From a virus: 64,000 nucleotides of DNA. The notes below the pieces were generated by a model. That model was not told where the DNA came from. It saw only the letters and a program-made list of their open reading frames with translations, and did no database searches. The position numbers were made by a program, and so were the translations under genes. This document shows, one piece after another, positions 3,710-58,526 of the stretch (positions are counted from its first letter, which is position 1; every line of letters begins with the position of its first letter). The stretch spans positions 3,939 through 67,938 of IMG/VR virus record IMGVR_UViG_3300038701_001282. One strand, given 5' to 3'.

Positions 3710-4562
3710 TGTTTCCTCCTATATGTATGAATCTTGGTAAGATATTATACTCGTCATTCACTAGTTCACCTGGATATCCTACAGGGTTAGTTACAATCTT
3801 GCAACCCATAATTTCACAATCAACCTTATCGTGCGTATGTCCATAAATCCAATAAGTAGGTACTGAAAAAAGCGCTTCTGGCACCTTCGGTGTAAAGTAG
3901 GAGGAGAAGTTACTAGGCCCTCTGTATGGGGCAGCACACATCGGAGACGGAGGAAAGTGAGTTACAACAATCGTCTCTCCTTCAAAGTCTTCTACATCAT
4001 AATTACATTCTAGAGTGTCCTCGATAAATAGCAAGGACTCATTAAATAAAAATTGCATAGTATTTGCAGACATGGAGGTATTACTGGAATCATTTGTTCT
4101 TATCAACCTGAAATCAGATATGCCTGACTCGCAAGCAGCCATGTCTACTGGGTGGTTATTGAAATCTGTCCACAAAGTACTGCCAATTATCCTTACATGG
4201 TTGCCCCTAGAATCAACAAATATCTCATAGTCGTTATCTAATATATGAAGATTATCAAGTTTTCTGTACATCTGAAATTGATGAACATCTGCTATGAAGT
4301 TTAGAATATCTTTACCATAAAACTCGTGATTACCTAATACAAATACTACCTTCCAATACTCATCACAAAGGTTTGCCAGGTATGGGTACAACAAACTCTC
4401 CTCAGAGCAGATATCACCTGCCAATACTAGTATGGTTTCAGAATTATCGTCAATTTGGTATGTAGGTGGGTACCACATCCTTTTTGATCTGAACTCGTTA
4501 TGTATGTCTGAATAATACTCAATCTTCAAGGATAACCTCCCCTTTTTCAAGTAAATCTGCAA
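3699..4562 (-). CDS. calcineurin-like metallophosphoesterase
   Basis: SDIH, LAGD, GNHE, VVTHFPP, YGHTH motifs. Confidence 0.9.
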   Translation of the reverse strand: MQIYLKKGRLSLKIEYYSDIHNEFRSKRMWYPPTYQIDDNSETILVLAGDICSEESLLYPYLANLCDEYWKVVFVLGNHEFYGKDILNFIADVHQFQMYRKLDNLHILDNDYEIFVDSRGNHVRIIGSTLWTDFNNHPVDMAACESGISDFRLIRTNDSSNTSMSANTMQFLFNESLLFIEDTLECNYDVEDFEGETIVVTHFPPSPMCAAPYRGPSNFSSYFTPKVPEALFSVPTYWIYGHTHDKVDCEIMGCKIVTNPVGYPGELVNDEYNILPRFIHIGGNNEQ

Positions 4563-5195: not shown

Positions 5196-5223
5196 AGTAT
5201 ACTAAGTTCACAATATGTGTCAA
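5196..5223 (-). promoter_or_regulatory. sigma70-like promoter (leftward)
   Basis: minus strand TTGACA-16nt-TATACT upstream of RBS at a divergence point. Confidence 0.65.
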
Positions 5224-5310
5224 CAGTGTCGTTATAATAATTAATTATTAGACATAAGCTAAACTTCTGTTAGGCTGAACAACATAACTACAAAAAATTC
5301 AGAAAAGGTA

Positions 5311-5523
5311 ATGCCTATGTACGTTTGCAATTGTAATGTTATAAACGAAGAGGAAATAATAGATGCTACGCATAAACTACAATTAATAGAGGATGCTAGC
5401 ATAGGAGTGACCGAAGTGTTACAAGTGTTAGGAGAAAAGGAATTGCAATGTGGTATATGCTACGCTAACATGAAGGTTACAATAGCTCAAGCCAAATCGA
5501 TGTATAACCCTTACAGAGGATGA
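5311..5523 (+). CDS. bfd: bacterioferritin-associated ferredoxin-like (2Fe-2S) protein
   Basis: MYVCNCNVI.....CGIC, the CxC-x31-32-CxxC Bfd pattern. Confidence 0.8.
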   Translation: MPMYVCNCNVINEEEIIDATHKLQLIEDASIGVTEVLQVLGEKELQCGICYANMKVTIAQAKSMYNPYRG

Positions 5524-7120: not shown

Positions 7121-7198
7121 GTCCCTATAGCATAATTGGATTAATGCAGGAAATTTCTAATTTTCAGATTGGGGGTTCGAATCCCTCTAGGGACGCCA
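7121..7198 (+). tRNA. tRNA-Arg(TCT)
   Basis: full cloverleaf GTCCCTA/TAGGGAC, D arm GCAT/ATGC, anticodon loop TTTCTAA, T arm TTCGAAT, encoded CCA. Confidence 0.95.
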
Positions 7199-7202
7199 TA
7201 TT

Positions 7203-7754
7203 ATGAAGATACCTAACATAGATAAAAATTGTTTTAAGTTAGACAAGACATTGGGCTATATGTATGCCATAGTACATGGACATCCTCTAGCTAACAAGTC
7301 TGGTAAAGTTTATGAGCACATTTATGTTGTATGCCAAGACATCGAAAGGAGTCTGTTAGACGAGGAATGTGTTCATCACATAGACAGAGATAGAGCTAAC
7401 AATGCCAGGAATAATTTGAAGTTAATGAGTAAGGTAGATCATGCCTTATTGCATGCTAAAGAAGATGGTAAAAGACTTAGAAAGTCCTTGTCATGCCTTG
7501 TATGCGGCAATATATTCTTGGGAGATGAACATAAAAACAAATACTGTTCTACGAGTTGCCAAAGTAAGGCAGCAAGGAAGTTTGATATAAACAAAGACGA
7601 ATTAACAATCATGGTGTGGAGTTTTCCTACTACGCACATAGCCACAATGCTTAGAGTATCCGACAAAGCAATAGAGAAGCGATGTAATAAGTTTGGCATA
7701 ATTAAACCTCCAAGAGGATTTTGGAGTAAACTAAGAGAACTAAGAAGCAATTAA
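7203..7754 (+). CDS. HNH homing endonuclease with Zn-finger and HTH-like tail
   Basis: VYEHIYV...CVHHIDRDRANNARNNLKLMS..DHALLH HNH motif; CLVC...CSTSC. Confidence 0.85.
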   Translation: MKIPNIDKNCFKLDKTLGYMYAIVHGHPLANKSGKVYEHIYVVCQDIERSLLDEECVHHIDRDRANNARNNLKLMSKVDHALLHAKEDGKRLRKSLSCLVCGNIFLGDEHKNKYCSTSCQSKAARKFDINKDELTIMVWSFPTTHIATMLRVSDKAIEKRCNKFGIIKPPRGFWSKLRELRSN

Positions 7755-10487: not shown

Positions 10488-11762
10488 ATGAATAACTATA
10501 TACTCACAGGTACTTATGCATTAAAAATGTATGTATACCCTCCAATATACACTGTAAGGAACTCTAAAGACCTTGATATACTTAGTTCTGAGGAACCGGA
10601 AGTAGTAAGAGAGAAGGAGAGTACACTGGTAGAACAAGTGTCTTCTCTATTTAAAGATCTGGGAGTAAACCATTCAATAGAAAATTGTGATCCTACCAGA
10701 GTTGATGACAGTGTAATGAACACTATGCTTAAGTATTGTATTCCAGTGCTCTTCAAGGGGTTTTACCTTAACATACCATCAATATCAGCCCTATACACAC
10801 TGAAATGTAGCCATTTGGGCTGGGACATTCACTGGGATAAAACTAAGTGGGATGTTCTTCAGTTGGGGCACTTATGTGATTTCAACCTTATAGATGAGCT
10901 ATATGACGTATTAGTAACATACTGGAAGACAGTAAACGGCAGTAAGGATCACCTTAACTTATCTAAACCTAAGAGTGAATTCTTTGATGATTTTGTAGAG
11001 ACACAGTATGATCATGATTACCTACATGAATTAGTTGCATACCCTAATCCCCCAATGTACACTAATTGCTTGAAAGATGGTGAAGAAGTGTTGATATCAA
11101 AAGCGAAATTTGATATACTGAGCCATGAATCCAAGGTGAGGATGTTCAGGGAAGAAATAGCAGTTATTGCAGCAGAGCGGTGGCTATTGAACCCAAAGTC
11201 AGATTTAACTATACTTCAGGCTTACAATGCAGCACTAAAGAAAACAATAGTCAGCCTCACTAAGAACTGGGCAACTGACTTTATAATTTGTAATCTAAAA
11301 GATTTCGTTATATTAGATATCCATTACTTTTTACACTTAATGCAAACTTTACAACCAGACAGGATGAATAAAATGACTAAAACACAAGAAAAACTATTAT
11401 CTGACCTACAGGCCATCTTAGGGGAGGGTTTTCAAGACAGCATAGAGTCCCTTGATATGTTGGCAGTTGGTCTGGCCGATGACGACCTATATGAAATCAA
11501 TGCAGGTTGGAACAGCAAAGCTTGCAATTGGGAGCACGACTACCGACAAAAGCTATTGGATTCTGGAGCTTACGAGCATACGGTACAAGAAGGAGGCGGA
11601 GAAGGTGGAACTGAGTATTGCTACGGAGTGTTTAAATTAAATGACACTCTCTACAAGGTAGAGTGGAGTTACTACTCTTACGATGGTTACTACACCGCAG
11701 GGGCATTCCGAGGCCTAACTGAAGTTAAACCAAAACAGAAAACTATTACTGTGTATGAATAA
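10488..11762 (+). CDS. nucleotidyltransferase-fold protein fused to C-terminal conserved phage domain
   Basis: ILTGTYAL...KDLDIL resembles the Pol-beta hG[GS]...DhD motif; C-terminus GGGEGG...CYGVF. Confidence 0.6.
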   Translation: MNNYILTGTYALKMYVYPPIYTVRNSKDLDILSSEEPEVVREKESTLVEQVSSLFKDLGVNHSIENCDPTRVDDSVMNTMLKYCIPVLFKGFYLNIPSISALYTLKCSHLGWDIHWDKTKWDVLQLGHLCDFNLIDELYDVLVTYWKTVNGSKDHLNLSKPKSEFFDDFVETQYDHDYLHELVAYPNPPMYTNCLKDGEEVLISKAKFDILSHESKVRMFREEIAVIAAERWLLNPKSDLTILQAYNAALKKTIVSLTKNWATDFIICNLKDFVILDIHYFLHLMQTLQPDRMNKMTKTQEKLLSDLQAILGEGFQDSIESLDMLAVGLADDDLYEINAGWNSKACNWEHDYRQKLLDSGAYEHTVQEGGGEGGTEYCYGVFKLNDTLYKVEWSYYSYDGYYTAGAFRGLTEVKPKQKTITVYE

Positions 11763-11883
11763 TAGGACGGTAACATGAATAATTCACAAAAGAAGTTTGA
11801 AGAGCTTATGACTGGGATTGTAGGTGGGTACAGTTACCAATTAATAAAAGATCATGTTGGGCTGGATCAACTAAGCGCAGGTC

Positions 11884-12108
11884 TTGAGTGATCTGGAACA
11901 GCACTACACACATTTGGAGTCAGACGGTGGAGGAGAGGGCGGAGCTGAAGATTGTTATGGAGTATTCCAACTTAAAGATACAATTTTTCGGGTTGAGTGG
12001 AAGTATTATTCACATCATGGAACTTACGCAGATTGTTCATATTCTTCGTTAGCAATTGTAGTGCCTAAGCAAGTTACTGTGACTCAGTACGTAGTTAAAT
12101 GGAAGTAG
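11884..12108 (+). CDS. paralogue of the C-terminal domain of 10488..11762
   Basis: GGGEGGAEDCYGVFQLKDTIFRVEWKYYS vs GGGEGGTEYCYGVFKLNDTLYKVEWSYYS. Confidence 0.75.
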   Translation: MSDLEQHYTHLESDGGGEGGAEDCYGVFQLKDTIFRVEWKYYSHHGTYADCSYSSLAIVVPKQVTVTQYVVKWK

Positions 12109-12117
12109 ATTTATAAT

Positions 12118-12138
12118 GGGGGCGAAAGCCCCTCCTTT
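12118..12138 (+). terminator. GC hairpin (GGGGC-GAAA-GCCCC) with short T tract
   Basis: perfect 5-bp stem, GAAA tetraloop, then TCCTTTT; abuts the 5' end of the tRNA-like gene. Confidence 0.55.
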
Positions 12139-12327
12139 TCTGAGGTAGCTTAATGGTCATTATACTACTTTTTTAGCTAACTGGTAGTATAATGAAGTGA
12201 GGAGGTGTATTTAGAGTCGGAAGCTTGGTAGCTCCCTGCCTAAGACCAATAAAATACACTATCTATTCACTAGAGCGCTGGACGGTTAATCCAGAAGATG
12301 TAGGTTCGAATCCTGCCCTCAGCTCCA
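12139..12327 (+). tRNA. tRNA-Asn(GTT)-like gene interrupted by a 114-nt D-loop insertion
   Basis: 5' half TCTGAGG-TA-GCTT-AATGGT (12139-12157); 3' half AGAGC-G-CTGGA-CGGTTAA-TCCAG-AAGAT-GTAGG-TTCGAAT-CCTGC-CCTCAGC-T-CCA (12272-12327); halves pair in acceptor and D stems. Confidence 0.8.
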
Positions 12328-12341
12328 AACCTTTTAATTCT

Positions 12342-12460
12342 AAAGCACTTTTTCATGTTTTGAGCTATAAATTTCAGCTTTCAAACAGAAAATTAATTTT
12401 CGAATATAATATCAAAAAGCTTGATATCAAAAGCACTTTTTCATATTCTGAGTTGTAAAT
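12342..12460. repeat. 31-nt imperfect direct repeat (2 copies)
   Basis: 12342-12372 and 12430-12460, 27/31 identical, core AAAGCACTTTTTCAT. Confidence 0.8.
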
Positions 12461-18531: not shown

Positions 18532-18698
18532 AGGTACTCTTGAGAGTTGTGCTGCACTGAGTCGAATCTAACTCTCAGTCCGTGTCGCTTTAGTAAAGAC
18601 TCGAATAACCTCGTCTGTTTTAGCTATCGGCCCCATCCGCTTATATCGGGGCATGCATTCGATTTACATGCTTTACAACACAACTCACAGGAATACCC
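18532..18698 (-). ncRNA. candidate structured ncRNA, element B
   Basis: 13-bp terminal stem GAGTTGTGTTGTA/TGCAGCACAACTC with G-U pairs valid only on minus strand, extendable to about 25 bp; several internal hairpins. Confidence 0.65.
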
Positions 18699-28068: not shown

Positions 28069-28145
28069 CCCACTTCCTCCTACTGGTTAATATCTGGGTT
28101 TAAATTTATATCTTCCATACATCACCTCTTGTTTATAAGTAAATT

Positions 28146-28298
28146 GGTGTTATGTGCTGCGGATTGAATTGAACTAACTTCACAATAACTATCACGCTTG
28201 GCTAACGCTCTTAGTCTGCTACCCAGACGACAGAAATAGTTTTGATTTTAGAGCCGGTTAAGCACAAAACTTTAGATCTGCCCACAACACATAACACC
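28146..28298 (-). ncRNA. candidate structured ncRNA, element A (paralogue of element B)
   Basis: 17-bp terminal stem GGTGTTATGTGTTGTGG/CCGCAGCACATAACACC with two G-U pairs on minus strand; internal hairpins AGTTTTG/CAAAACT and GTCTG/CAGAC. Confidence 0.7.
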
Positions 28299-28305
28299 TA
28301 TTTGC

Positions 28306-40210: not shown

Positions 40211-40618
40211 ATGCCCAGATTTAAAAAAGGCCAAAGCGGCAACCCAAAAGGTAGACCTCCTGGCAGTAGCAACTCCATCCCCTCAGAAAAAGAAATTATC
40301 GACTCTATAAAAAAACTTAACAAGTCCGCAATAAACAAAATTGCAGAAGTCCTCACAGGAAACAACGAGGATAGAGCTTTTAAAGCAGCAGTTAAGATTG
40401 TTGATATAAACTATAGCATTGCCGTAGACGAAAAGAAAGAGAAATCGCTTAATAAACGTAAGATAGAAAAAGTTAAAGAAGAAGAAGAGGCTGCTGCCAA
40501 AGCAAAAGAGATTGAAGAGGAAAGAAAAGAAAAAGAATCTTCAGAATCTGAAATGACTGTAGAGCAGACTGGCCCTAAATCTAAAGTCTTACGATTACCA
40601 TCAAATTTCGGAAAATAG
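40211..40618 (+). CDS. terS: terminase small subunit (DUF5681-type N-terminus)
   Basis: MPRFKKGQSGNPKGRP motif, GGAGG RBS, upstream of TerL. Confidence 0.8.
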   Translation: MPRFKKGQSGNPKGRPPGSSNSIPSEKEIIDSIKKLNKSAINKIAEVLTGNNEDRAFKAAVKIVDINYSIAVDEKKEKSLNKRKIEKVKEEEEAAAKAKEIEEERKEKESSESEMTVEQTGPKSKVLRLPSNFGK

Positions 40619-40685
40619 CACAGCCTGGTAGTGCACTCGCTTTGGGAGCGAGGGGTCATAGGTTCAAATCCTATTTTTCCGACCA
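40609..40685 (+). tRNA. tRNA-Pro(TGG)
   Basis: CGGAAAA/TTTTCCG acceptor, GCAC/GTGC D arm, loop TTTGGGA, TTCAAAT T loop, encoded CCA. Confidence 0.95.
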
Positions 40686-58473: not shown

Positions 58474-58526
58474 GTCCTACCTCGAAAGCCTCTTAATAAT
58501 GCTCAAACTTCGGGGTAGGCATTTTA
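58474..58526 (+). terminator. large-loop hairpin after tube gene
   Basis: CCTACCTCGAA/TTCGGGGTAGG 11-bp stem then ATTTT. Confidence 0.45.

Follow-up and report, generated by a model that had tools for sequence, protein, structure and literature searches.

The 64,000-nucleotide (nt) stretch of DNA analysed here, called the window below, covers positions 3,939 to 67,938 of the IMG/VR virus record IMGVR_UViG_3300038701_001282. This record is a 72.5-kb contig from a marine alga-associated sample, with a CheckV completeness of 44% and an estimated phage genome of ~165 kb. At 12139-12327 of the window lies a 189-nt tRNA-like gene that is interrupted in the D-loop by a 114-nt insert (Table 1). We read the locus as a real gene of the tRNA-Asn(GUU) type, with its RNA structure intact. 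At 12139-12324 (+) it is matched by positions 1-71 of the Rfam tRNA model RF00005 with 39.0 bits and expect (E) values of 1.1e-4 for the whole window and 8.4e-7 locally. With a four-arm cloverleaf above the gathering score of 29, the locus is a member of this family. The alignment contains one unaligned run of 115 nt, located after the D-loop AAUGGU. With the insert in place, ARAGORN overlooks the gene and calls only tRNA-Arg(TCT) at 7121-7198 and tRNA-Pro(TGG) at 40609-40685 in the window; no further tRNA was found in the 72.5-kb contig. A first-pass annotation, made from the sequence, had predicted that standard finders would miss the gene, which is true of ARAGORN but not of Infernal with the Rfam model.

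The same annotation had proposed that excision of 12158-12271 leaves a normal-length cloverleaf with a GTT anticodon and that the two halves pair in a 6-base-pair (bp) acceptor stem and a D stem. Both proposals hold. ARAGORN calls tRNA-Asn(gtt) for nearly all in-silico excisions around 12158-12271, and the proposed excision gives a product of 75 nt. Cloverleaf stem pairs are formed at 20 of 21 positions. Pairs 2-71 to 7-66 of the acceptor stem are CUGAGG/CCUCAG, the D stem is GCUU/GAGC with a U13·G22 wobble, and the anticodon and T stems are CUGGA/UCCAG and GUAGG/CCUGC. The bases for tertiary contacts are all kept (U8, A14, A15-U48, G18, G19, A21, G26-A44, G46 and the T-loop UUCGAAU). The exception among the pairs is U1·C72; this mismatch, G33 in the anticodon loop C-G-G-U-U-A-A and U73 had been noticed before, and all three are real in the sequence. 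The gene is not a canonical elongator tRNA by its length with the insert (the norm is ~73-93 nt), G33 and the U1·C72 mismatch. The GUU anticodon and the Asn call after excision point to the isotype, although position 73 is U instead of G, which in E. coli is the acceptor-end identity base for asparagine charging. The closest sequences to the 3' part are annotated tRNA-Asn genes of Streptomyces phages, ~79% identical over 56 nt. The tRNA-Arg and tRNA-Pro genes of the same phage also appear to encode their CCA ends, since their ARAGORN ends lie 3 nt past the Rfam ends.

Table 1. Coordinates of the interrupted tRNA-like gene and of two upstream features in the window
Feature	Position	Strand	Description and basis
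tRNA 5' part	12139..12157	+	UCUGAGG, U8 A9, GCUU, D-loop A14 A15 U16 G18 G19 U20; Infernal alignment, pair table
Insert hairpin 1	12158..12194	+	arms CAUUAUACUAC / GUAGUAUAAUG; loop contains palindrome UUAGCUAA; fold and homology
Insert hairpin 2	12196..12271	+	AGUGA-GGA-GGUGUAUUU / AAAUACAC-U-AUC-UA-UUCACU; variable tip around GGAAGCUUGGUAGCUCC
tRNA 3' part	12272..12324	+	A21, GAGC, G26, CUGGA-CGGUUAA-UCCAG, variable loop AAGAU, GUAGG-UUCGAAU-CCUGC, CCUCAGC, U73
G33	12284	+	
Anticodon GUU	12285..12287	+	
U73	12324	+	
CCA end, encoded	12325..12327	+	read from sequence
Terminator-like hairpin	12118..12135	+	GGGGGC-GAAA-GCCCC and U tract; terminator scan; ends upstream operon
RNA ligase gene, 356 amino acids	8553..9623	+	PF09414 42.7 bits; PHROG 548 'RNA ligase' E = 6e-62

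Structure of the insert and its relative in a second phage

In the minimum free energy fold of the 189 nt (-57.4 kcal/mol, z = -2.5), the cloverleaf is retained and two hairpins form within the D-loop. For the insert by itself the value is -34.6 kcal/mol (z = -3.7), and 1 of 200 shuffled sequences folds as well. Hairpin 1 has a 12-bp stem, consisting of 11 perfect Watson-Crick pairs and a U·G pair, and a loop of 13 nt. Hairpin 2 is an interrupted stem of ~17 bp. The 11-bp hairpin and the long stem correspond to those of the first-pass annotation; the GGAAGCU/AGCUCC cap that it described on the latter is one of several near-equal folds of the tip. Hairpin 1 begins at the first base 3' of U20 and hairpin 2 stops one base short of A21. 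The hairpins are therefore flush with both junctions, and the conserved D-loop bases remain in place.

None of the intron or ribozyme types compared fits the insert. The locus matches no Rfam family besides tRNA at E <= 1, and at E <= 10 the insert alone gives only noise-level microRNA and small nucleolar RNA matches; a nested tRNA or known RNA family within the insert was rejected on this basis. The insert shares with group I introns a U at position -1 before the 5' junction and a location in a bacterial-type tRNA gene. It differs from them in that there is no P1 pairing and its last base is U instead of G. A group I intron was rejected because RF00028 matches neither the locus (E <= 1) nor the insert (E <= 10) and 114 nt is short of the ~200-nt minimum. 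The six-domain group II ribozyme with its domain V spans several hundred nt, and the insert, at 114 nt and with no Rfam match, is not of this type. Self-cleaving ribozymes (hammerhead, twister, pistol, hatchet and hepatitis delta virus-like) give no match to the insert at E <= 10. A bulge-helix-bulge intron, in which a 4-bp helix separates two 3-nt bulges at the splice sites, was also rejected, since the junctions lie at the feet of two different hairpins and no 4-bp helix joins them. The insert contains no sigma-70-like site.

A homologous insert was found in another phage, G001 (IMG/VR record 3300021403_000003), whose genome of 176,865 bp is rated complete and comes from a Joint Genome Institute (JGI) metagenome sample taken to be soil. 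It is 42 nt long and occupies the same D-loop site in a tRNA-Phe-like gene, L218 (L numbers denote loci that we fetched). The start of this insert, CATTATACTCAGTTAGCTAA, is identical at 20 of 22 positions to the bottom strand of hairpin 1, CATTATACTACCAGTTAGCTAA, a score reached by 1 of 20000 shuffles. In the top strand of hairpin 1, the first nine bases are the same as the L218 insert start, both directly after GGT. The two RNAs have in common the junction, at which GGU is followed by CAUUAUACU, and the closing pairs CAUUA/UAAUG, and their loops contain UUAGCUA(A). The junction hairpin is 5 bp in G001 and 12 bp here. No homologue of the DUF7275 protein or of the RNA ligase encoded upstream of our tRNA-like gene was found in G001, which appears unrelated to the present phage as far as tested. 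A 20/22 block at the same site in unrelated phages suggests that the junction block moved between phages and tRNA types. By this comparison the insert is not a private accident, as its junction hairpin is homologous to an insert at the same site of an unrelated phage's tRNA-Phe-like gene, and the hairpin probably belongs to a horizontally spread insert family that uses the same D-loop site in different tRNA types. The first-pass annotation had named an unconserved insert with decaying halves as the sign of a pseudogene; in the single homologue the 20-nt junction block is kept, but the second hairpin is not.

The G001 gene has homologues at the same place of the tRNA array in relatives of G001 (DNA ligase 58-64% identical). 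One of them, L244 5219-5302, has no D-loop insert and an aberrant anticodon region. In the other, L249 4139-4244 (+; 59.9 bits), the D arm is uninterrupted and a 33-nt insert lies in the anticodon loop. L249 and L244 show 7 and 3 both-sided stem changes (7, 3 and 7 across the genes) and zero broken pairs. Such changes without a broken pair suggest that the fold is under selection in the G001-gene lineage, whatever the inserts do. The anticodon-loop insert of L249 contains the T-loop-like sequence GUUCGAGUC. The G001 gene itself (L242 5866-5983, equal to G001 163367-163484) has two alternative D-stem 5' strands, GCUC after A9 and GCUC before the loop ACAGGUAA. In its unconstrained fold the proximal GCUC is used, and the distal UAGCU pairs with AGCUA of the insert. 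Based on this predicted fold, the conserved UUAGCUAA loop may compete with D-stem formation in the G001 gene.

The palindrome in hairpin 1 also allows a reading at the DNA level, which we regard as very improbable. Hairpin 1 would then be a palindromic protein-binding or recombination site, for instance an operator, an insert that confers immunity to a homing endonuclease, or a tiny transposon's end, and its site would reflect a preference for D-loop DNA. The half-site CATTATACTAC-N-TTAGCTAA is present on both strands about the palindromic centre, and the G001 block is matched better by the bottom-strand than by the top-strand copy. The target GGT^AGAGC is the same in two unrelated phages and two tRNA types, and an HNH endonuclease gene adjoins tRNA-Arg in the present phage. 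However, the motif occurs nowhere else in the two genomes, the G001 copy has one half-site only, and neither a target-site duplication nor a linked transposase or nuclease was found. Compared with miniature inverted-repeat transposable elements and IS200-IS605 elements, the insert has hairpins at both ends and the same target in two phages, with one copy each in the 72.5-kb contig and the 177-kb G001. The single-copy status of the motif in both genomes also led us to reject a general phage promoter motif. If the palindrome acts at the DNA level, this would be compatible with any other reading and would be silent on RNA function.

Searches for further relatives were negative. For the CATTATACT...TTAGCTAA family, exact-pattern scans of IMG/VR and of 185,579 prokaryote genomes (GTDB) gave chance matches and no more members, and a regular-expression scan of 249 fetched loci found none. 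The anticodon-arm 17-mer and the T-arm/acceptor 25-mer, searched as exact strings in IMG/VR, gave chance or coding matches, or none. A looser pattern of the 3' half in JGI metagenomes found other G33 tRNA-Asn genes, none of them interrupted, and the insert found nothing in GenBank phages by blastn. Among five related Vibrio and Pseudoalteromonas phages in GenBank, four have normal tRNAs only and one has no tRNA, so that none is interrupted. Among 5.8 billion proteins, none is more than 50% identical to the neighbouring DUF7275 protein, and the flanks read around its best homologues (L027-L030) contain only normal tRNAs. Two paralogous elements of the window that had been noticed before, 18532-18698 and 28141-28303, have no evident likeness to the insert by eye.

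Other interrupted phage tRNA genes and position 33

Further interrupted genes were sought with a pattern of the D-arm start GTAGCT...GGT, a gap, AGAGC, 26 bases and a T-loop, followed by acceptor-strand pairing across the gap; the anticodon loop was ignored. The scans covered insert lengths of 42-72 nt, with the T-loop GGTTCRANTCC, and of 90-120 nt, with the T-loop GGTTCGAATCC. Five other phage tRNA genes are interrupted between the D-loop GGU and A21. They are the G001 gene L218 (42-nt insert, Phe-GAA-like, C37), L183 (46 nt, Arg-UCU-like, A33), L222 (68 nt, Ile-GAU, normal loop), L168 (71 nt, Phe-GAA, the insert end being a partial repeat of the tRNA 5' end) and L106 (103 nt, Lys-UUU-like, A33, with 20 of 21 pairs kept and five G·U pairs). 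L184, L200, L210 and L227 were rejected as interrupted tRNAs because they are only tandem partial duplications. Whole-insert homology between the present insert and the 103-nt insert of L106 was not supported (global alignment P ~0.09), and a scan for a motif shared by the two returned L106 and a coding chance match.

Position 33 links these genes to the present one. The background consisted of 1043 distinct phage tRNAs from IMG/VR loci L099-L232, a set retrieved for other purposes. Its base frequencies at position 33 are 95.4% U, 3.8% C, 0.5% A and 0.3% G, with a purine in 8 of 1043 (0.8%). A purine is found in two of the five interrupted tRNAs (L106 and L183; P ~6e-4 against this background). 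Together with the present gene, there are three independent interrupted tRNAs in which a purine at 33 is the sole anomaly of the loop and positions 34-38 are canonical. In the tRNA arrays that could be read, the interrupted genes are spare copies: G001 also has a normal tRNA-Phe, and L106 has two normal tRNA-Lys(UUU). In both A33 genes, L106 9658-9815 (-) and L183 ~5206-5325 (+), there is a G27·A43 mismatch and U32 is able to pair with A38. Judged from these bases, the arm would form a 5-bp stem shifted by one with a 5-nt loop, AUUUA or AUCUA.

The anticodon loop CGGUUAA with G33 is also found in uninterrupted tRNA-Asn(GUU) genes on several unrelated contigs (L046, L052/L054/L055/L078/L086, L059/L096 and L093/L097/L098). 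L096 carries two copies, one with U33 and a long variable arm and one with G33 (3959-4031), and the 1-72 pair is open too in the G33 tRNA-Asn of L046 and L052. Other tRNA-Asn genes have A33 (L184) or C33 (L162). From these sequences, a tRNA-Asn without U33 looks like a recurrent phage trait. C33 loops recur across contigs as UCGAUAA (Ile-GAU) and CCUUUAA (Lys-UUU), and C33 is far commoner than purine-33.

Inserts also occur elsewhere in phage tRNA genes. In L106 11715-11827 (-; 44.9 bits) an insert lies just 3' of the anticodon loop, and in L246 2446-2572 (+; 42.5 bits) it lies in the variable region. The inserts of these two genes and of L249 4139-4244 measure 33-55 nt, and all three genes score above the Rfam threshold. 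One of the other interrupted examples was scored below threshold by Infernal. Since ARAGORN missed the present gene as well, phage tRNA inventories likely under-count interrupted genes.

Genomic neighbourhood

The proteins of the phage resemble those of Vibrio, Alteromonas and Pseudoalteromonas myophages (37-54% identity), and from this gene content the host is presumably bacterial. The tRNA-like gene closes a co-oriented block that encodes a macro-domain-like protein, tRNA-Arg, an HNH endonuclease, an RNA ligase and a DUF7275 protein; the macro-domain and HNH matches are slightly under the Pfam cut-offs. The gene of the HNH_3-type endonuclease (7203-7754, +) begins 5 nt past tRNA-Arg(TCT), which recalls the free-standing homing endonucleases of the T4 tRNA cluster. 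Downstream of the 424-residue DUF7275 protein (10488-11762), two open reading frames (ORFs) of 38 (11775-11891) and 74 (11884-12108, +) amino acids directly precede the terminator and overlap each other in different frames. The 74-residue product matches PHROG 13591, as do the C-terminal 70 residues of the DUF7275 protein, and this ORF may be either a small paralogue of that protein's domain or a frameshifted gene. The final U of the terminator is position 1 of the tRNA. The AT-rich spacer 3' of the tRNA contains two copies of AAAGCACTTTTTCAT(G/A)TT(T/C)TGAG(C/T)T(A/G)TAAAT at ~12344-12372 and ~12432-12460 (+), which look like tandem promoters for the next gene block. Farther away, at 58480-58516 (+), the window matches the abiF RNA motif of Rfam (44.6 bits, cut-off 37), and in a phage such an RNA might serve as the counterpart to an abortive-infection system of the host. 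The locus is contained in two algal-metagenome sequencing runs, one at ~2260x, with identical sequence; no insert-free form was seen.

The RNA ligase, assigned to the Rnl2-like nucleotidyltransferase group, is encoded 2.5 kb upstream of the tRNA-like gene in the same block and is a candidate partner only; by sequence it has no PDB or NCBIfam match. In a distant relative (L029/L030 8581-16720) the DUF7275 gene adjoins an RlaP-type nucleotidyltransferase, and a PNKP-like kinase/phosphatase and a PF09414 RNA ligase are encoded nearby on the opposite strand. This arrangement suggests that DUF7275 may belong to RNA-repair gene neighbourhoods. Rnl2-like ligases join 3'-OH to 5'-phosphate ends. No EndA (PF01974), RtcB or AAA_33-type kinase was found in the 72.5-kb contig, which is 44% of the genome.

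The ligase figures in an alternative that we think unlikely, namely that the insert is a tRNA intron removed by proteins. Host endonucleases whose products bear 3'-OH and 5'-phosphate ends would cut at the hairpin bases: RNase P would treat the 12-bp hairpin 1 as a minihelix, and hairpin 2 would be cut by RNase Z, RNase III or RNase E. The acceptor and D stems would hold the halves while the phage Rnl2-type ligase seals them, and the product, a G33 tRNA-Asn, would decode AAY and resist anticodon nucleases. The exons do make up a near-perfect 75-nt tRNA-Asn with CCA, and the hairpins are flush with the junctions, the 12 bp of hairpin 1 being the length of an acceptor and T-stem stack. Finding neither a kinase/phosphatase nor RtcB or EndA in the 72.5 kb fits ends that need no healing, and the conservation in G001 of the GGU junction with CAUUAUACU and of CAUUA/UAAUG would agree with a processing site. 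Insert-free G33 tRNA-Asn genes exist, so G33 may be compatible with function, and Lak megaphages have unexplained tRNA introns (PMC6784885). However, the complete G001 genome has the homologous insert but neither a PF09414 ligase nor RtcB (a PF09511 search was also empty, but is weak, its control being uninformative), suggesting that phage-run cutting and ligation is not a trait of the insert family. The 5-bp junction hairpin of G001 is no 12-bp minihelix, there is no RCCA at the 3' end of hairpin 1, and hairpin 2 lacks conservation. Rnl2-type ligases favour nicks in duplexes, whereas the D-loop presents them with a single-stranded junction. Bacteria are not known to have such a pathway, and an intron would leave the enrichment of purine-33 and the spare-copy status of interrupted genes unexplained. 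The full proposal, that bacterial viruses splice tRNA without a ribozyme by means of junction hairpins that recruit host endonucleases and an Rnl2-type ligase that seals the halves into a nuclease-resistant G33 tRNA-Asn, is in our view quite unlikely.

Function of the gene and comparison with known systems

The finding is real and unusual, and it allows three main readings. The first-pass annotation had offered an intron, a decoy or regulatory RNA, or a decaying tRNA. All three are retained, with random decay the least consistent because the stems (apart from 1-72) and the tertiary bases are intact, G33 is recurrent and purine-33 is enriched in interrupted tRNAs. We tentatively favour a tRNA-shaped RNA that keeps its insert and does not decode. 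Positions 20, 20a and 20b are the natural site of extra, outward-facing bases in tRNAs. With an insert in this pocket and its hairpins flush at the junction, A14, G18, G19 and A21 are kept and the L-shape can stay intact. The RNA would be made by read-through of the upstream terminator, its 5' end would be trimmed by RNase P, and the product would persist as a tRNA-shaped molecule of ~189 nt that includes the insert. It would not be an ordinary decoder: the insert would make the elbow bulky, a purine in place of U33 would upset the U-turn, the 1-72 pair is open and position 73 is U. It would still display a canonical Asn anticodon arm (G34-U35-U36-A37-A38-U39-C40-C41) and could thereby occupy proteins that read this arm, for example host anticodon-arm nucleases of phage defence. 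The AriB nuclease of PARIS cuts E. coli tRNA-Asn in the context U36-A-A-U-C, before C41, and viral tRNAs acting by competition have been raised as a possibility (PMC12409363). As the displayed arm has this cut context, a decoy for anticodon-arm nucleases is a concrete guess from the sequence. The deviations are at the functional positions 33, 1-72 and 73 rather than elsewhere in the stems. Among the readings, only a mimic jointly explains the intact body, the anomalies at these positions and the link between inserts, purine-33 and spare copies. It would also agree with the finding of no RNA ligase in G001.

Several points count against a mimic. No promoter was found between the upstream terminator and the tRNA-like gene, and the terminator is good and directly upstream. 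The sequencing runs listed for the locus include no RNA run. The gene has no close relative in the searched databases; only ~20 nt of the insert are common with the G001 homologue and hairpin 2 has no counterpart, so that the insert structure as a whole appears to be without comparative support. The literature that we searched contains no decoy tRNA with a D-loop expansion. The association of anticodon-loop defects with inserts would also be expected of dead genes.

A young pseudogene, which we consider rather unlikely, would have arisen when a small palindromic mobile or recombination-derived segment hit GGT/AGAGC of a tRNA-Asn gene, with G33, U1·C72 and U73 as the first neutral hits. Its singleton status without conserved relatives and the terminator directly upstream without a promoter of its own would suit such a gene, as would the failure to find splicing machinery or a ribozyme. 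The D-arm-like fragments UAGCUAACUGGUAG and AAGCUUGGUAGCU in the insert resemble recombination debris, several 'interrupted' array matches (L184, L200, L210 and L227) are tandem partial duplications, the interrupted copies in G001 and L106 are redundant with faulty anticodon loops, and insert conservation is limited to the 20-nt block. Yet three functional positions deviate in a body that has kept 20 of 21 pairs and every base for tertiary contacts, and G33 recurs in otherwise normal phage tRNA-Asn genes. Three independent interrupted tRNAs with purine-33 as the sole loop anomaly are unlikely to result from random hits. The L106 gene retains 20 of 21 pairs by means of five G·U pairs, the G001-gene lineage shows compensatory change, and the 11-bp arms of hairpin 1 are still perfect. 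In addition, dead DNA is usually deleted fast from phage genomes, which counts against a pseudogene.

The favoured mimic can be compared with small, stable, non-decoding RNAs of phages and bacteria that resemble or are linked to tRNAs and are processed by the tRNA machinery, namely the phage T4 stable RNAs species 1 and 2 (rnaC and rnaD) and the bacterial tRNA-like YrlA Y RNAs. These are not full cloverleaves with an anticodon arm of defined isotype, and our locus matches no Rfam family besides tRNA. Changes in the anticodon arm allow some phage tRNAs to evade the tRNA nucleases of the host (van den Berg et al. 2023, PMC10264068), and T5 tRNA-Lys/Thr/Asn have been studied against PARIS AriB (PMC11464382, PMC12409363). 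Like these, the present gene is a phage copy of a nuclease-targeted isoacceptor (Asn-GUU) with an anticodon-loop substitution. In the escape tRNAs the changes are at or near the cleavage site (39-41 for AriB), whereas here U36AAUC and C41 are unchanged and the change is at the near-invariant U33. The described escape tRNAs have no D-loop insert.

To our knowledge, protein-dependent tRNA splicing is held to be archaeal and eukaryotic, and bacterial tRNA introns are self-splicing and located in the anticodon loop. Archaea have non-canonical tRNA introns, including D-arm and D-loop sites, in which a bulge-helix-bulge is cut by EndA and the ends are joined by RtcB (review PMC4090602). Our insert shares with the archaeal D-loop introns a site outside the anticodon loop and a mature domain that can still fold. 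They are removed by proteins, while for the insert described here protein removal is a candidate reading only. Archaeal introns need the bulge-helix-bulge and EndA/RtcB; here there is no bulge-helix-bulge, the 72.5-kb contig yielded neither enzyme, and a bacterial host is presumed. The nearest comparison is with the tRNA genes of Lak megaphages, which have 'enigmatic' short ribozyme-free introns of unexplained removal (Devoto et al. 2019, Nat Microbiol, PMC6784885; preprint 10.1101/356790); it was suggested by that study that intron-containing tRNAs are perhaps common in large phages (PMC6784885). Both are phage tRNA inserts that have no recognised ribozyme and leave a foldable tRNA, and our insert has the features of this class, RNA-level removal excepted for both. 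Lak inserts are conserved between genomes, and conservation here is limited to the 20-nt junction block common with G001. The Lak introns were mapped by eukaryote-mode tRNAscan, which expects an anticodon-loop site, and some are tRNA-like. Our insert differs, in a comparison made without sequence alignment, in its D-loop 20/21 site, in not being tRNA-like by Rfam, in its ~165-kb phage and in G33.

Unexplained ribozyme-free inserts in phage tRNAs were thus already known from Lak megaphages. Our analysis extends this class to the D-loop, adds a second member by sequence homology and associates the inserts with purine-33. If the insert is removed, this would involve an undescribed bacterial pathway and might explain why phages carry Rnl2-type ligases, for which we know of no natural role. 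If it is retained, the RNA would be a tRNA look-alike tied to tRNA-cleaving anti-phage defences and to the phage tRNAs that counteract them. Given the link between D-loop inserts and purine-33, phages may encode a class of non-decoding tRNA mimics that goes unreported by tRNA finders.

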